NCBI GenBank assembly: GCA_010093705.1 | Contig: MU006110.1 | Location: forward strand, 1 to 64,000 | Reading direction: 5' to 3' | Source of the DNA: Patellaria atrata CBS 101060 | Lineage: Eukaryota | Length of the DNA stretch: 64,000 bases | In this document: one piece after another, positions 34,840-41,625 of the stretch | How the letters are laid out: each line of letters begins with the position of its first letter | Numbering within the stretch: the stretch's first letter is position 1 | Position numbers and translations under genes: made by a program | Notes under the pieces: model-generated | What the model was told of the DNA's origin: nothing | The model's database searches: none | The model's input: the letters and a program-made list of their open reading frames with translations, nothing else

Positions 34840-36647
34840 GAATATGTAGGGTGGTACGCGGTCAATGTTAAGACAGTATGAATATATGATGGGAGGACGT
34901 AGAGCGGTCGCCGAAAAGGTTTTTTGATTGTTCGGGAACACAGGTGAATATACGATTGGCCCAAGGTGTCAGAGTTTCTATAAAAAAGCGGCAGCAAACT
35001 TGAGAGATATCAGGACTTATAATTCTCAACGTCGATTGTAATAAGCGGGGCTTTTCTTTCTTCGAGGGAAGTGGGTAGATTTCTGTGAAAAGTATCTAAT
35101 TTATGTGGTATAGTAAAGAAAAACGGGAGGCAAATTAGTCATAGGGCACATGAGCAGAGAGGAAAGGGCTATCCAGCAATGTAAACGAGGTACCAGCCAC
35201 CGAGGCCATTATCTAGAACGCGAGATGCAGAACAAGACTTCAATTTACAGGAGTACGGGAGTACGCTGTAGACGTATTTCAAAGGCTTTCACTTACGAGG
35301 GTATTGCTGTAACGTAAATCCACCTCAGTCAAGAATCCGATAGCCTTTAGTTCTACTCCGGGTTTCTATTCGGGTCCGAATAATAATGGCGAGTAAAAAG
35401 GGTATACGTAATAGGCGTATTCCGCCGCGGAGGAGGAATTAAGCTCCGATTTGATTCGAATATAACGATAAGGTGGTACGGTACCGATGGGTTGATTGGA
35501 AAATTCAATTTCGGTATTTTAACATTGAGATCTACCTTTTTCAAGGTAACAAAAGAGTTGAAAAGAGAGGCGGTGTGACCATTTCTATTCCTATCAAGGC
35601 ATCATCTTGGATTTCCGTATCTCGATCTTACCGAGCGCAGTGTTTTCCGGTGAGGGATATTAAGGAGTAGAAAGACGCCGGGACGTTTTATCATAGAGGG
35701 TAATAGGGGGGTAATCGGGCATGAGGGGAGGCTCGTCCAAAAAAACAATCAGCCGTAAGGTAATCAATATATCATGCCAGATATACTATAGCATGATGGT
35801 GAAGCCAGAACCTCGTAGAGCACGCGTTATTCCCTTAATCTAGGATAAAATGTAACCTAAAGTGGAGGTGCGGATTTGTACTGTTAGAGTAAGATAGAGC
35901 CCAGCTCAGTAAGGTAAGTTATCTTTTACTTTCCTGTTCAAGGTAAAGGGAAGTGATGATAGCTTGACGTCGACTTTTTCTTTTCCGCATCGAACCTTTC
36001 CCACCTCTAGGCATTAGCCCTTCTCGCTTATTCGTTTAGGGTTGAAGTTACGGAGTATCTTCCGCGTTCAAGACCCTGGATCCTTGTATCTCCGTACACA
36101 CGGTTACCAGAACCTTACACAACCACGTGACCTGTTCGCCCCTTTCTTTACAGTACGAGGGTGGCAGGGCAAATGAAACTCCGCTTTATCAGTGATAAAT
36201 TTCATACATGTTATCTATATTATTCGACCTTATCCCATCTGCACAGCTCAGAACTAATGGAAAGGGGATAGTTTGTACAATAAAGTTCAAAACTTCGAAA
36301 TTAGACAAAAAGGGGAGGGTACAAAGAGGTCCGCGGAAGGTAAAACCAGTTAACCCTAGAACAACCCCGTCTCTGTTTGTCGGGAGGAAATATGCCGGCA
36401 CATTGCAAAAGGGTGCTGCACACCTCACCTCGTTCTCGTTGATCTTGTTACCTTCATAGGTCCATCCAGCATGGAATCAAAAAGGAATAACTTCAGAAAA
36501 TACGGCAAGGCACATCATTATATCAACATGTCTATCATCCAGAGGACAGAACAAGATGTCTATCTTTAATCCAATTCAATTATACACCCGCAACCTAAAA
36601 TATGCACTCCTGAAGCCTTCCCAACTGCGGCACTCCTGTAACTCTCT

Positions 36648-38895
36648 TCACGCCTTGATGCCTAACTCCCTATAAAATGCATCCGGCTCAGGCTTACGAC
36701 CCAGGAAGTCAACGAGTGTCTGCATTTCGTCTTGGCTACCACCACGCTCCAGCACCGTATGCCGATACCGCCGTCCTTCAGTGCCATTCATAGGGTCTGA
36801 TTCGAAGACCGTATAGAACATGTCTGCTGAATAGACTTGCGAGCTGGAAAATGATCATTAGCCATACATCCAATCTACCCGACGGAATCAATCAAATACC
36901 TTAGGTATCCGTAGTAACCTGCATCATATCCACCAATGAGATGTCCGAACGTCGCCTGACCGTGGCCCCAATCCCAACCCTCACCAAGACTTTCTGGCCC
37001 GTCTAGTTTAGAGATTTCACTACGAAGTTTGTTGTACGTCTCTGAGATTTTTAAGTCCTCGATGTTCTCATGACTCGAGGGCTCATGTACCGTCATGTCG
37101 AAAATACCGAAGTGCAGCTGCCGAAGATTGAACAAAGCATCGTTAACGTGCTTCGTCTTGATCAAGTTCTCGATAAGAGAGTCCGGGATGTGTTCCTCTG
37201 GTTTACTCGAATCACCGGATGACTCCTGGTACGCTTTTGCGTAATCCTCCGAGAGATAGGAATAATGATGGCTCAAAGATTTGAGTTGAGAAGGAGTCCA
37301 ACACCAGTTCTCCAACATTTGACTTGGCGCTTCGACAAAATCCCGGACTGTACTTGTACCATGGAAGCGAGAGTAGATCGTGCGGGAAACCAGATCGTGA
37401 ATCCCATGGCCAAGTTCGTGGAAGAGTGTGACGACTTCATCATGCTTCAAAAGACTAGGCTTCTTAGGCGTAGCTTTGGAGAAATTGCAAACTAAAGCGG
37501 TGGCAGGATATCTCCGATTACCGTTCTCGTCCATGTAACCGGGTTGGAGGTTGAAGTTAGCAGCATGACCGTACTTACCCTCTCTCGGGAATAAATCCAG
37601 GTATAAATATCCTACAAAGCCGCTACCCTCGTCTTCGTCGTCCCAGACACTAAAGACTTGAACGTCTTCATGCCAAACGATATCAGACCCCTTTCCAGTA
37701 TCTGACACCCGGTCACGCTCTTCGCCAGTAATCTCCACAAAGACCAGGCCAAAGAGCTGTTCAAATATTTGTAACATGCCGCGGATGGTTGGGCCTAGGG
37801 GAAAGTACTCTGCGATCTTGTTGTGATCTAGTTGATAGTCTTTTTCCAGCATTAGACGATCGTAATAACGATGATCCCACAAGTAATAATGGCCATCCTT
37901 ATTTCCCTCAGCCGCTTTCAGAGCAAGGAGTTTGTTGATCTCCTCCAACCCCCCTGCAGCGAGTCGTTCACGAAGATCACCAAGGAATTCATCCACAGTC
38001 TTTGGAGTTTTTGCCATTTTGTCCTCAATCCTAAACTCCGCATGATTCTTGTAGCCTAATAAGCGTGCAGCTTCATCGCGCAGTACCACTGCTTCCCGGA
38101 AAAGAGGTATGTTCTGAGGTAATTTGTTCTCGTTCGCTACAAATACCGTCTTACGTGTCTCGGCGTTTGTGGCATACTTCAGAGTGGGAAACAGATCAGG
38201 ATATTTGAAGCTCAGCCTCAACTTTCCCTCATTTTCCCCTTGACCTTTTGCAAGGGTCTCGAGGACATCGTTTGGAACACCATCCAATTGTTCTGGCGTA
38301 AACCATAGCCCACCAGTCTCCTCATTCAGGTTCTTCTGAAAGATAATACTGATCTCGCTCAATCGTTTCTTGATGGCTTTGAATCGATCCCTCTTCGGCC
38401 CTGCCGGTAGTCCTAAGCCATTAGTGATATAACTCTTACGGTCTTTCTCTAGAAGCCGCTGAGACTCCGGATCCAGATCTTCACCCTTCTTGAGCGCAGA
38501 GTCCACGAGTTGGAAGACATCCTCACGCATGCTCGACTCGATACCCCAATCATCAAGAAGCTTCTCCGCCTCGGTGGATGCGTCTCTTAAAGCTTGGTCT
38601 GTAGACACTGCTTGATAGAATCCAATGATGTGTGACTCAATTGCCATTTTATTATCATCCAGCGCCCTTAGTAATACGACATTTTTGAAGGAGGCGGTTT
38701 CGGCGGTGACAGCAGCGACGATAGAATCCTCAACCTGCTTGGATTTCTTGATCTGAAAAGATAGTCAGCACAAATTGCAGACATGTAAGACGCAAGAACC
38801 CGTACAAGTCTCTTAGTATCTTCTATTAATGAAGAGGGCGTCGCCGTGAACTTTGGCGGGGCTTGGGGAGGGTTTCGGTAACGGTCCGGGGCCAT
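36648..38895 (-). CDS. mepB: Metallopeptidase M3A (MepB/saccharolysin/thimet oligopeptidase)
   Basis: YLDLFPREGKYGHAA, VVTLFHELGHGIH (HExxH), DFVEAPSQMLENW, FGHLIGGYDAGYYGYL, QVYSADMF..FLGRKP. Three exons. Confidence 0.95.
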
Positions 38896-39610
38896 GGTAA
38901 CGTTTGTAAACGGCCTGTAAGACGTATAGTTTAAGAGCCGTGAGGGCTTTAGGTGGTCAAGAATAGCGGTGACACGGTATCCGAGGCGGGAGGAAGCCAG
39001 TATGTATATTGTTGCAAGGAAAAGTATAAGGCTCGCGACGATGAGCTTGAGAAAGCGTGCTTTCGCCAGACTGTCGGCTTGTACTGTACTGGAGGATGTT
39101 TAGGGTCCACTTCGAAAAAACTTTAGGATTAGGACTGGTTCTATGACATAATAAGAGACAGATACGGATTGTTGAACGAAGGATATGGGCACACGATTCT
39201 ATCTGTATCTCAGTTACAGAGTTCTCTGTTCGAGGGGAGTTGTTATGCTGTACTGGAAAGATGAGTGAGATGCTGTTGGTGGAGGAACAGGTGCTTGGGG
39301 AGGAAAGCTCTTGTGCTCCGTTTCACCTATAGAACTACGCTCTACAGTACAGTACAGTACAGTACAGAGTGCTCAAGCTGTATTCACTTCACCACTTTCC
39401 TTGTGCATGAACTCCAAGATATCATCAATAATCAGATGAACATTTTCCGGTATAAATTACTATCACTCATCGCGCGACATCCATCTCTTAACCCGCAACT
39501 TTCCTTGGTCCAACTATTGCTACAGGACTGCGGTATCAATCACTCTCTCAATCAGCCCTTAACCTCGTTCAAAGTTTGACTCCCGTATATAAACTGTAAC
39601 CCAAACCCCA

Positions 39611-40273
39611 ATGTCTTCCTCAGACCCTCGAATATCTCAGCTAGTCTCCTCAACCTTGTGTCAGAAGGTTTCGGGCGACATTTCCGATAAGAGACTATAC
39701 TATGGCTATGGTAGTAACATGTGGCTTTACCAAATGGCCAACCGCTGTCCTACATCCTCGTTCGTAGGGATAGCACGTCTACCAGGTTACCGTTGGATTA
39801 TTAATGATAGAGGATATGCTAATATAGTCTTAACATCCAAGTCTGCCAGTTCTGGACCTGGCGAAAAGAGCGAGGAAGATGAGGTTTGGGGAATGGTGTA
39901 CACCTTGAAGGGGAAGGACGAGAAGCGGCTTGATCGAAATGAGGGCGTACCGTATTGCTATGTCAAAGACGACACTATTGAGGTCGCCCTCTGGAAGTCA
40001 GATAAGGACAAGAATGGTGGGTTTATCGATATAAAGGAACCATCGAAGGACGTCAAGGTGCTTGTCTACATTGACCGAGATCGGGTAGAGCCAGATAATC
40101 CGAAGAAAGAGTATATATACAGAATGAATATGGCCATTGCAGATGCCGTAGCCTACGGTATCCCTCAAGATTATGTGGACAAGGTGATGAGACCTTTTAT
40201 TCCGAAGGACGAAGCCAAGGACCAAGAGATTACTGCTGTGGGTCAAGCTTTGGAGTTCAAAGATGAGGACTGA
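39611..40273 (+). CDS. Gamma-glutamylcyclotransferase (GGCT/AIG2-like)
   Basis: LYYGYGSNM..RCP, GYANIV, VWGMVY, LDRNEGVP, YIYRMN..GIPQDY. Confidence 0.88.
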   Translation: MSSSDPRISQLVSSTLCQKVSGDISDKRLYYGYGSNMWLYQMANRCPTSSFVGIARLPGYRWIINDRGYANIVLTSKSASSGPGEKSEEDEVWGMVYTLKGKDEKRLDRNEGVPYCYVKDDTIEVALWKSDKDKNGGFIDIKEPSKDVKVLVYIDRDRVEPDNPKKEYIYRMNMAIADAVAYGIPQDYVDKVMRPFIPKDEAKDQEITAVGQALEFKDED

Positions 40274-41625
40274 ATATTTCACTTCGAACCCAATGTTTAC
40301 CAGTGTACATGATCAGCATTCCAAGCTAGAAGACATCGTTTTGCTACTACGTCGGGTATATGATAAGATATCACTATAAACGCGCCAATCTCCGAAATAT
40401 TACAGGTTCGACAGCATATGGCCCATTTCTAGGTTATGGCAATTCCCCTGATTAAACGGACAAACATACCGCCAAAATCGCAGAAACAAAAAGTCATAAA
40501 CACTGTACCGTCGAGCAAATTAAATCCGCGTCGATTGCCCCATACTGCTTAAGAGTCGTTTCGAGACTATTATATGTAATCATTCGAACCATCATAATGT
40601 ATTAAGCTATTTATATCAGAAGCAAGTTTACAACCCACTTCAAAGTACAGTGAAGCTGGACCGGAGAAGTCGAATACTTTTGCACCTGCAGCTTCTGAGG
40701 TGATGACCAGTTCCAAAATCCCACCAGAGCGTAAACTATCTGCATAAATACCCCTATGGATGCCAACGGGTAGCCAAATATTTCCCCTAGGAATATACAT
40801 GAGAGGTAAGTTTAGGTCAGGTCCGTAAGTGGGCGATGGAACCAGATGGAATCCACGATTTTGAAACCGAAAGATTACACTGAATATCGAGAGGCATATG
40901 CAATGTTTGATAGTTCATAGTTGTTTAGTTTCGGATTTGGAGCTACAATAACAGTGGTAATCATGTATATTCATTCTCGTATTAGTAAATCAACAAACAG
41001 GACTCATTTGCTCGTCAAGAATAATAATAAAATCATGCTACTTGATTCAATGTGATACGCTACCCTATCTATAATACTAATATAGAGTGGGAGGGGTAGG
41101 TCGTGTATTCAGTGTGCAGTACTCCACTACCTCATGTCGGTTACTTCATCTAAGTAATCCTAACTTGTCCTTTATTCTGTTACTACGCTCCTTACGCTAT
41201 CTATGCAAAACTTGGTTGATAGAGCGGTTGGGTGAAACAAGTCAAATTCAGTAGCATACCATAGACTATGATGTGTACCTAGATGTTCTTATACAACGAA
41301 TAAGGGAAATTTACTATAGCGAAGAGAGTAGGACCCATCGAACCTCAAACGCCAGACCGAATATAAATAAGCAGTTTCCAAGTGGAAACTCCCAAGGTAC
41401 TTGTTTTTTTTTTTTTTTTTTTTTTTTTGGATCTCTTAGGCATCAGTGTTACAAACCGCTAGCATTCGAAGAACTTCCACAGATCAATTTGGCAAACAAC
41501 AAAGGCATTTGACCTTCCATAACGATAGACGACATATTCATTCACAGAGTGTAGATCCAAAAATCGAAGAAGTAAGTATTCTAAATCTCACAATAATTCC
41601 AACACTAACCGTTCCCAGACCAACC

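Follow-up and report, generated by a model that had tools for sequence, protein, structure and literature searches.

The 64,000-nucleotide stretch of DNA analysed here, referred to as the window, carries a three-exon mepB gene on its minus strand. Exon 1 (38806..38895, 30 codons) is separated by a 53-nt GT..AG intron (38753..38805) from exon 2 (36900..38752), which was assigned to Peptidase_M3 and includes the sequence HELGH; a second intron of 56 nt (36844..36899) precedes exon 3, which ends with the TGA stop (36648..36843). The annotated AUG (38893..38895) lies in a strong context, accATGg, and translation of the three exons from this codon gives a form of 712 aa. In a Pfam search MepB was identified as PF01432 Peptidase_M3 (E = 1.4e-120), with HELGH corresponding to the HExxH zinc site, and the homologues among the protein matches were named MepB, thimet oligopeptidase or saccharolysin. 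Two public runs with this DNA (X1 and X2, from one sample of one study) were genomic contigs in which 36500-40400 was covered with the introns in place.

The annotated 5' leader had been predicted, from the window sequence, to hide an N-terminal extension of MepB, and each of the sequence features named in the original prediction was found in place on the minus strand. An in-frame TAA (39100..39102) ends the leader frame on its 5' side and is followed by 68 sense codons up to the ATG at 38895-38893, with the translation as first given. The 250 nt 5' of the start are free of ATG in any frame, and the interval 39400-38896 holds a single ATG on this strand (39149-39147), the nearest upstream, which opens a three-codon mini-uORF, ATG TCA TAG (39141..39149). 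Two in-frame CTG codons have A at -3 and G at +4: a distal one, agtCTGgcg (39067..39069), proposed as the main near-cognate start, and a proximal one, ataCTGgct (38998..39000), a possible second start that would bypass the hydrophobic stretch described below.

Read from the distal CTG, the frame encodes a short basic tip, AKARFLK (39046..39066), then a hydrophobic stretch of transmembrane or signal-anchor type by Kyte-Doolittle and AlphaFold2, LIVASLILFLATIYILA (38995..39045), and then a basic, acid-poor, Ser/Thr/Pro-rich segment of 33 residues (38896..38994). Within this segment are RVTAILDHL (38950..38976), a PTS2-like amphipathic nonapeptide that is also a phi-x-x-phi-phi element, and, directly before Met, the junction RPFTNVT (38896..38916), a candidate MPP/Oct1 processing site of the R-10 type. 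A Pfam search of the leader together with exon 1 returned no family.

From the window's own triplet frequencies, the chance of 68 open codons was ~0.04 and that of no ATG across 250 nt was ~0.011. RVTAILDHL fits both the loose PTS2 pattern by which it was originally recognized and a stricter nine-position pattern. The loose pattern had 21 matches in the 127,296 six-frame residues of the window and the stricter pattern 2, giving 0.010 and 0.0009 matches expected per 60 positions, respectively. These single-sequence values are all post hoc, and the decisive test against chance is conservation in relatives.

Conservation of the leader frame in relatives

The leader extension was found in 5 metagenome loci and ~40 distinct protein clusters, including annotated Fusarium, Aureobasidium, Sphaceloma and Thermoascus models. 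The frame was open in 5/5 confirmed metagenome loci, and for P0001 and P0009 it was open and similar, with 56-57% identity over 92% of the 98-aa query. In a profile search of 1.84 billion cluster representatives, 37/62 matches covered the leader part. Among long proteins it was covered by 14/90, for example those of Fusarium graminearum (770 aa), Aureobasidium pullulans (840 aa), Sphaceloma murrayae and Thermoascus crustaceus. The relatives were retrieved via called open reading frames, to which closed-frame lineages are invisible, so these counts do not give the share of fungi keeping the extension.

In the codon alignment of the leader, every indel consisted of whole codons. Between lineages, pN in the leader was 0.23-0.46, with pS saturated at 0.66-0.81. 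Over the ten codons 5' of the distal CTG, the two values were approximately equal in five of the six between-lineage comparisons; the closer pair L004-L005 was the exception. By both alignment and pN/pS, the distal CTG marks the 5' edge of amino-acid conservation. The Met of the annotated AUG is absent in 7/45 relatives, which makes the extension obligatory in those lineages.

The expectation that orthologues would share the frame and the near-cognate starts received strongly positive results, the frame and both CTGs being kept. The central claim of the original prediction, a hidden near-cognate-started extension missed by standard annotation, was likewise borne out by the conserved frame, purifying selection beginning at the distal CTG, conservation of the CTG codons and the absence of ATG between them and the annotated start. 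There is strong support for reading the annotated mepB leader as a conserved protein-coding N-terminal extension, apparently CUG-started, that resembles an organelle-targeting signal, and it is very probably translated. Most database models of mepB are N-terminally truncated; in others the open leader frame has led to a false extension or to fusion with the neighbouring gene.

A chance open frame was also considered as an explanation and is ruled out by the comparative data (alignment, selection, CTG codons and absence of ATG).

The two CTG codons as candidate starts

The distal and proximal Leu columns were both CTG in all four DNA lineages (6/6 sequences). As a control, conserved Leu columns of exon 2 were occupied by CTG as the single codon in 1/39 cases (Fisher p = 0.0037 vs the leader), and one codon was common to all sequences in 4/148 conserved degenerate columns of that exon. 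Both CTGs had A-3 and G+4 in every one of the 6 DNA sequences. The number of ATGs in any frame from the distal CTG to the AUG was 0 in 6/6 sequences, for which shuffles gave a P(0) of 0.14-0.23 each. At the protein level, the distal column held L in 26, M in 6 and V in 3 of 45 relatives, its codon being known from the six DNA sequences of four lineages only, and the next residue was Ala in 34/45. The proximal column held L in 37, V in 7 and F in 1 of 45 relatives, and the surrounding site, AT[AC] CTG GCT TC, was identical in all four DNA lineages.

The status of both CTGs as candidate starts is upheld by this codon-level conservation, the A-3/G+4 contexts and the ATG-free interval. Initiation is likely at the distal CUG (39069-39067) and probably occurs at the proximal CUG (38998-39000) as well. 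Part of the scanning ribosomes would start at the distal CUG, and probably part at the proximal CUG; the remaining ribosomes would leak through the ATG-free stretch to the strong AUG and produce the M3 oligopeptidase of the cytosol (712 aa). Forms started at a CUG would bear a targeting extension in three parts, namely a short basic tip, a hydrophobic stretch (~19 residues) and an amphipathic segment (~32 residues, basic and acid-free), the last ending in R-P-[LIF]-T-x-x-T right before Met. From the observed frame, selection, CTG conservation, ATG absence and architecture we infer initiation at the CUGs, together with the isoform ratio, destination and processing of the products. The mepB leader would be a clean and widely conserved test case for fungal CUG initiation, possibly with two alternative CUGs.

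An upstream AUG exon spliced into the frame would make CUG initiation unnecessary, and the conservation could instead be that of a regulatory upstream reading frame, or of an element acting as RNA or DNA, with no protein isoform being made. Entry from an upstream exon would be compatible with the genomic nature of the public runs, with the AG dinucleotides present between the TAA and the distal CTG, and with some annotated relatives (Fusarium graminearum, Aureobasidium) beginning at ATGs further upstream. However, these annotated long models differ from each other in their upstream parts, and similarity and selection start at the CTG, not before it. The window and L005 both have in-frame stops 10 codons 5' of the CTG, and in 8 called proteins the first residue, M or V, falls exactly on the distal CTG column. 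Synonymous sites that are saturated while the protein is conserved speak against an RNA element. Taken together, these explanations are very unlikely, and protein-coding extension from the CUGs is preferred.

RNA structure was considered separately, both as a cause of the conservation and as an aid to CUG initiation, and was rejected: the four-lineage consensus fold had 6 pairs with 0 covarying, and folding of the leader was no better than that of shuffles (z = 0.10).

Architecture and possible destinations of the extension

The best 19-residue Kyte-Doolittle mean was 2.50 in the window and ranged from 1.26-2.81, mostly 2.0-2.6, in 38 scorable relatives. The stretch is flanked by basic residues, with 0-3 K/R and nearly no D/E in the tips of relatives and an R after the stretch in nearly all of them. 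AlphaFold2 predicted a helix at residues 5-50, with a mean pLDDT of 89-98 at residues 11-30. The suggestion that a form started at the distal CUG adds a basic patch and a hydrophobic stretch of membrane-spanning type agrees with this conserved architecture.

In the segment following the hydrophobic stretch, K+R made up 13.4% and D+E 0.7% of 1616 residues from 47 non-redundant sequences; the window's own segment has 5 K/R, 1 H and 1 D in 32 residues. The segment is amphipathic, with muH of 0.51-0.69 over 11 residues in 8 sequences, and falls within the AlphaFold2 helix. At the junction before Met, R was present at -7 in 37/45, P at -6 in 33/45 and L/I/F at -5 in 40/45 relatives, in which the junction reads R-P-[LI]-T-[TN]-S-[TS]. 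The R-10 motif is described as R-x-(F/L/I)-x-x-(S/T/G)-x-x-x-x (PMC7996597), and the R, [FLI] and S of the junction sit at -10, -8 and -5 of the residue after Met-Ala-Pro, matching its register. The presequence-like segment lies at the extreme N-terminus in the proximal-CUG product only, as the hydrophobic stretch precedes it in the distal-CUG product.

The published PTS2 consensus is (R/K)(L/V/I)x5(H/Q)(L/A) (PMC7214817). In the nonapeptide column of 42 relatives, R was found at position 1 in 36/42, L/V/I at position 2 in 32/42, L/I/V/F at position 5 in 38/42, H/Q at position 8 in 31/42 and a hydrophobic residue at position 9 in 38/42. The published consensus was found in 8/45 non-redundant relatives, or 16/45 when F at position 9 or Q at position 2 was allowed, and the nine-position pattern was also found in 8/45. 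Departures from it in several lineages were A/S/T/F/G at position 2, Y at position 8 or I/V at position 9. The nonapeptide occupies residues 9-17 of the proximal-CUG product and residues 32-40, behind the transmembrane-type stretch, of the distal-CUG product. The original claim of a perfect peroxisomal signal is upheld in part: the nonapeptide is a conserved motif column in which R1 and H/Q8 are kept in most lineages, but the strict consensus is confined to a minority of them, and the peroxisome is a candidate destination only.

On this evidence, one mepB gene would probably make both a cytosolic and an organelle-bound enzyme. A mitochondrial presequence is favoured because the segment is acid-free, its junction resembles R-10, and yeast Prd1 resides in the mitochondrial matrix, where this soluble enzyme breaks down presequence peptides (PMC5561175); near-cognate-started mitochondrial extensions do occur in fungi (PMC7049704). 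The chances that the extension supplies an organelle pool destined for the mitochondrion appear close to even. MPP, with Oct1 possibly acting after it, would remove the presequence-like part at the R-P-[LI] junction, leaving a mature N-terminus at the Met or three residues beyond it; in the longest form, the hydrophobic stretch would serve as a membrane anchor or sorting element. Against a mitochondrial destination, the full R-x-[FLI]-x-x-[STG] motif was found in 23/45 relatives only, and in the window's RPFTNVT the S/T/G position is taken by V. That R, phi and H/Q are each conserved at a fixed position of the nonapeptide is likewise unexpected for an ordinary presequence and fits a PTS2 better. 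A very hydrophobic N-terminal stretch before a presequence is not a classical matrix signal and is more usually associated with ER targeting or a membrane anchor. The distal-CUG form could be imagined as the functional one, simply an N-terminally anchored membrane protein (of the ER, vacuole, Golgi, or outer mitochondrial or peroxisomal membrane) or as a secretory protein, with the basic helix setting topology only. Such a function would suit the hydrophobic stretch, which is the most persistent element of the extension, kept where Met and the nonapeptide consensus are lost, and whose 19-residue hydrophobicity of ~2.0-2.6 is well over transmembrane thresholds; it would also suit the single unbroken helix that AlphaFold2 gives from the tip through the nonapeptide. 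N-x-S/T sequons are common just before Met, although a composition rich in Ser/Thr/Asn, together with the A at -3 of the AUG, may be enough to account for them. A simple membrane-anchored or secreted form is nevertheless unlikely, as it leaves unexplained the codon-level conservation of the proximal CTG, the long acid-free segment and the R-P-[LI] junction, and the M3 family is described as cytosolic or organellar-matrix in the literature consulted.

The form started at the proximal CUG (Met-Ala-Ser-Ser-Arg...) could also be a Pex7-dependent PTS2 cargo and hence a peroxisomal M3 oligopeptidase, alone or beside a mitochondrial or membrane form. H/Q alternation is the hallmark of PTS2 and forms part of the nonapeptide column, whose conservation as a motif is real; RVTAILDHL fits both patterns against low chance expectations, the proximal CTG and its flanks are nucleotide-identical in all four lineages, and there is precedent in the non-AUG-initiated PTS2 isoforms of fungal Pgd1 (PMC7214817). 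We regard this as rather doubtful: even the relaxed consensus reaches a minority of relatives, with off-consensus residues at positions 2, 8 and 9, and of the 7 lineages lacking the canonical Met only 1 has a consensus nonapeptide. A PTS2 would account for neither the acid-free 30-residue segment, the R-P-[LI] junction nor the upstream hydrophobic stretch, and the orthologue is known from mitochondria (PMC5561175). Neither a peroxisomal M3 peptidase nor a link of saccharolysin with non-AUG initiation turned up in a literature search, and the portion of PMC9291397 consulted on Prd1/saccharolysin addresses neither isoforms nor peroxisomal targeting. A search on mitochondrial proteomes of filamentous fungi likewise yielded nothing of use. 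The fullest version of the original idea, with three conserved starts on one mepB mRNA across Pezizomycotina (a distal-CUG membrane form, a soluble proximal-CUG form with a working PTS2 and a cytosolic AUG form), is improbable. If peroxisomal import did occur, the proximal-CUG product would be the first M3 oligopeptidase known from peroxisomes, and mitochondria might share it via the overlapping presequence. For MepB, the choice between peroxisome and mitochondrion could be reduced to a simple reporter experiment. CUG-started forms with a targeting extension, most likely mitochondrial, beside the AUG-started cytosolic form were retained as the best explanation of the whole, albeit tentatively.

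Relation to known dual-localization systems

Non-AUG-initiated PTS2 isoforms have been described for fungal 6-phosphogluconate dehydrogenase, Pgd1/Gnd1 (PMC7214817). As in that system, targeting information in mepB would be encoded in the annotated 5' UTR, in frame with the AUG and without an upstream in-frame AUG, and the peptide is conserved among related fungi, with a cytosolic and an organellar form expected from one gene (PMC7214817). The Pgd1/Gnd1 extension is short, contains only the PTS2 and begins 39 nt 5' of the AUG (PMC7214817), whereas that of mepB has 58 codons from the distal CUG and adds the hydrophobic stretch, the acid-free presequence-like segment and the conserved junction motif. 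The PTS2 consensus is also held by a minority of lineages in mepB, unlike in Pgd1/Gnd1. Import has been demonstrated experimentally for Pgd1/Gnd1 (PMC7214817), whereas that of MepB is predicted from sequence.

The arrangement also resembles that of Cryptococcus ArgRS, LeuRS and other tRNA synthetases, in which near-cognate or weak-AUG extensions add a mitochondrial targeting sequence (PMC7049704). Common to both are an upstream near-cognate codon in strong context, leaky scanning to a strong AUG and the presequence character of the extension. Unlike those extensions, that of mepB begins with a transmembrane-type stretch and has two conserved CUGs, and mepB/PRD1 is not among the near-cognate mitochondrial-extension cases in the portion of PMC7049704 consulted. 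A parallel for the predicted processing is provided by peroxiredoxin V, which has two in-frame starts and in which the R-10 presequence of the long form is trimmed by MPP and then by MIP/Oct1 to approximately the short form (PMC7996597). In MepB, an R-P-[LI]-T-x-S junction placed immediately ahead of the Met would follow the same logic. Peroxiredoxin V differs in being an animal protein with AUG at both starts and demonstrated processing, whereas the processing of MepB is suggested by a motif complete in about half of the relatives and incomplete in the window.

The closest enzyme for comparison is Saccharomyces cerevisiae Prd1 (saccharolysin), an orthologous Peptidase_M3 with an organelle pool that is soluble in the mitochondrial matrix (PMC5561175). 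Prd1 is comparable to MepB in enzyme family and in the organelle pool proposed for MepB; the hydrophobic stretch and CUG starts come from Pezizomycotina-type sequences only. If the extension acts as proposed, it would explain the organelle pool of the Prd1/MepB oligopeptidase in filamentous ascomycetes despite an annotated product that has no targeting signal.

The mepB gene and its leader

The mepB gene on the minus strand comprises three exons (38895–38806, 38752–36900 and 36843–36648) separated by introns at 38805–38753 and 36899–36844. It encodes an M3 zinc oligopeptidase, with a Pfam Peptidase_M3 match in exon 2 (E = 1.4e-120) and a translated AUG form of 712 aa containing HELGH. Relatives are annotated as metallopeptidase MepB, thimet oligopeptidase or saccharolysin, and the best matches were from Dothideomycetes. 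Upstream, a divergent gene with AIG2_2 and GGACT (gamma-glutamyl cyclotransferase-like) domains (39611–40273, plus strand) shares with mepB an intergenic region of ~710 nt, in which a (TACTG)n pentanucleotide microsatellite was present at 39334–39373. A run of 350 N at 1304–1653 represents an assembly gap or masked stretch.

Translation confirmed the 68 open codons preceding the mepB AUG back to a TAA at 39100–39102, from which the original prediction had proposed a hidden CUG-started extension. The leader peptide, the distal and proximal CTG codons (39069–39067, agtCTGg, and 39000–38998, ataCTGg) and the nonapeptide RVTAILDHL (38976–38950), predicted as a peroxisomal PTS2 signal, were all exactly as described. 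The closest same-strand ATG was 80 nt 5′ of the distal CTG and belonged to a three-codon mini-uORF. As a single sequence considered alone, the leader was only mildly unusual in its open frame (chance in the window, P about 0.04), its lack of ATG (P about 0.011 for 250 ATG-free nucleotides in the window) and its PTS2 match (about 0.010 chance matches to the predicted pattern expected per 60 positions).

Conservation of the leader frame and its CUG codons

Relatives were all found via called open frames, and these searches are blind to lineages whose leader is closed. A 98-aa query of leader plus exon 1 was searched against longer proteins, where P0001 (173 aa) was one of 8 matches at E ≤ 0.01 in 423 candidates, and against proteins of similar length, where P0009 (160 aa) was one of 2 matches in 7 candidates and the product of the window itself was the second. 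Both P0001 and P0009 had 56–57 % identity across 92 % of the query and one single-codon gap. The leader frame was also open in all five metagenome loci confirmed from 577 pattern-matched stretches in a contig scan. With a three-sequence profile searched against 1.84 billion cluster representatives (E ≤ 0.001), 37 of 62 matches aligned from the leader part on, and with a 33-sequence profile 14 of 90 long-protein matches spanned at least 55 % of the query. Conservation of the open frame, which the original prediction had left to be checked in relatives, was observed in these sequences. Annotated models covering the leader include Fusarium graminearum (770 aa), F. longipes, Aureobasidium pullulans (840 aa), Sphaceloma murrayae and Thermoascus crustaceus, which represent three classes of Pezizomycotina. 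The remaining 76 long-protein matches, as seen in examples, started at the canonical Met or a few residues from it, the expected output of gene finders that require ATG.

A codon alignment of the window and the five metagenome loci (L001–L005), representing four lineages, contained only whole-codon gaps. Between lineages, leader pN was 0.23–0.46 against a saturated pS of 0.66–0.81, with exon 1 pN at 0.06–0.21. In the ten codons 5′ of the distal CTG, pN approximated pS (0.5–0.76) in five of six between-lineage pairs, the exception being the closer pair L004–L005, and in-frame stops lay ten codons 5′ of this CTG in the window and L005. This contrast, together with the upstream stops, indicates that protein-level constraint begins at the distal Leu codon. 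RNA structure as the cause of leader conservation was rejected, as none of six predicted pairs covaried and the leader fold had z = 0.10.

The candidate near-cognate starts were likewise conserved in relatives. The distal codon was CTG in all six DNA sequences, each with A at −3 and G at +4, and the Leu of a conserved I-L-A-S was CTG in all six, inside an invariant AT[AC]CTGGCTTC. In exon 2, used as a control, only 1 of the 39 columns that are Leu in every one of the four lineages kept CTG throughout, compared with both leader codons (Fisher p = 0.0037), and just 4 of the 148 conserved degenerate columns there used a single codon. In a set of 45 non-redundant proteins, the distal column held L in 26, M in 6, V in 3, R in 3 and a gap in 7, followed by Ala in 34. 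This column was also the precise start of eight called proteins, five of them beginning with M and three with V; as callers of the prokaryotic type recognize no start other than ATG, GTG or TTG, we infer that those lineages have a cognate or near-cognate start in the distal codon itself. The stretch from the distal CTG to the AUG was free of ATG in every frame in all six sequences (P(0) 0.14–0.23 each by shuffling), which is the exact requirement of leaky scanning to a strong AUG (accATGg). The canonical Met column was not Met in 7 of the 45 relatives, in which the extension must therefore belong to the protein.

By all comparative tests available, the hidden CUG-started extension is real, the original prediction being supported by frame, selection and CTG conservation, and the extension is very probably translated. 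Immediately 5′ of the distal CTG (39070–39078 and homologous positions in L002, L004 and L005), A-[AG]-C-C-G-x-A at −12 to −6 was conserved while the encoded residues were not; these nucleotides may form an extended start context. The seven relatives without the canonical Met (P0023, P0038, P0040, P0041, P0042, P0064 and P0066), only one of which had a PTS2-consensus nonapeptide, may be organelle-specialized paralogues or decaying copies.

Architecture and possible destinations of the extension

Read from its distal start, the extension consists of a tip of 4–10 residues with 0–3 Lys/Arg and hardly any acidic residues; ~19 strongly hydrophobic residues on the Kyte–Doolittle scale, ending in I-L-A-S; S-x-R-[FL]-G-x and the nonapeptide; [KR]-P with a variable linker rich in Ser, Thr and Pro; and R-P-[LI]-T-[TN]-S-[TS] immediately 5′ of the Met. 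This junction motif was well conserved (R 37/45, P 33/45, L/I/F 40/45). The best 19-residue Kyte–Doolittle mean was 2.50 in the window and mostly 2.0–2.6 in relatives. Over 1616 residues from 47 sequences, the segment after the hydrophobic stretch held 13.4 % K+R and 0.7 % D+E, with 4 of the 11 acidic residues coming from two sequences later removed as doubtful alignments. AlphaFold2 with a 33-row alignment predicted a single helix at residues 5–50, with the linker disordered (mean pLDDT 79.9, pTM 0.35). These features strongly suggest a targeting signal.

A mitochondrial destination is close to an even prospect. The acid-free basic composition and an amphipathic helix (muH 0.51–0.69) are accounted for by a mitochondrial presequence, and the nonapeptide also holds a hydrophobic-x-x-hydrophobic-hydrophobic element, the Tom20-binding pattern. 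Junction R, [LIF] and S sit at −10, −8 and −5 relative to the residue after Met-Ala-Pro, matching the spacing of the R-10 motif, described in PMC7996597 as marking MPP and then MIP/Oct1 processing; the full motif was present in 23 of 45 sequences, and the window has V at the S/T/G position. Cleavage there would yield a matrix enzyme nearly identical to cytosolic MepB, as in peroxiredoxin V, whose long form is trimmed to nearly the short one according to the same source. The yeast orthologue Prd1 was shown in PMC5561175 to be soluble in the matrix, where it breaks down presequence peptides. Counting against the mitochondrial reading, a transmembrane-type stretch before a presequence is non-classical. 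The two could be reconciled if the distal CUG gave an anchored form and the proximal CUG a soluble imported form, or if the extension were imported in the manner of Bcs1, which enters as a hairpin. That the extension is instead a plain membrane anchor of another compartment appears improbable.

A working PTS2, which would be compatible with a mitochondrial destination as well, is a rather unlikely explanation. The window nonapeptide fits the pattern, and the nonapeptide is a conserved, PTS2-like motif (R at position 1 in 36/42, L/V/I at position 2 in 32/42, L/I/V/F at position 5 in 38/42, H/Q at position 8 in 31/42; position 9 L 13, F 13, I 8, V 4) whose H/Q alternation is hard to account for otherwise. 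However, only 8 of the 45 sequences had a match, at any position of the extension, to the consensus (R/K)(L/V/I)x5(H/Q)(L/A) quoted by Kremp et al. (PMC7214817); tolerating Q at position 2 or F at position 9 raised this to 16, and a stricter nine-position pattern again gave 8. Nor does a PTS2 account for the acid-free basic segment, the junction motif or the hydrophobic stretch.

The literature searched contained no account of the MepB extension and none of a peroxisomal M3 peptidase. Non-AUG-started targeting extensions in fungi are a known class, as discussed in PMC7214817 and PMC7049704; that of MepB is unusual in its two conserved CUGs and in the hydrophobic stretch ahead of a presequence-like segment.

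Variation in gene models was also observed. The L004 orthologue (L004:2848–5265) lacks intron 1, so that leader, exon 1 and exon 2 form a single open frame, and in L005 (L005:400–2622) intron 1 is present and by chance open and in frame. Models P0085 (Fusarium longipes, 944 aa), P0088 (Sphaceloma murrayae, 1136 aa) and P0034 (Aureobasidium melanogenum) run from an upstream neighbour, with EF-hand or other domains, through the leader into mepB and are probably annotation fusions, arising probably because the leader is stop-free. Annotated models of Byssothecium, Lindgomyces, Lentithecium and Clohesyomyces (P0002, P0092, P0094 and P0096) start MNSSMAP; their ATG lies four codons 5′ of the Met generally used and coincides with the conserved junction-motif Thr.
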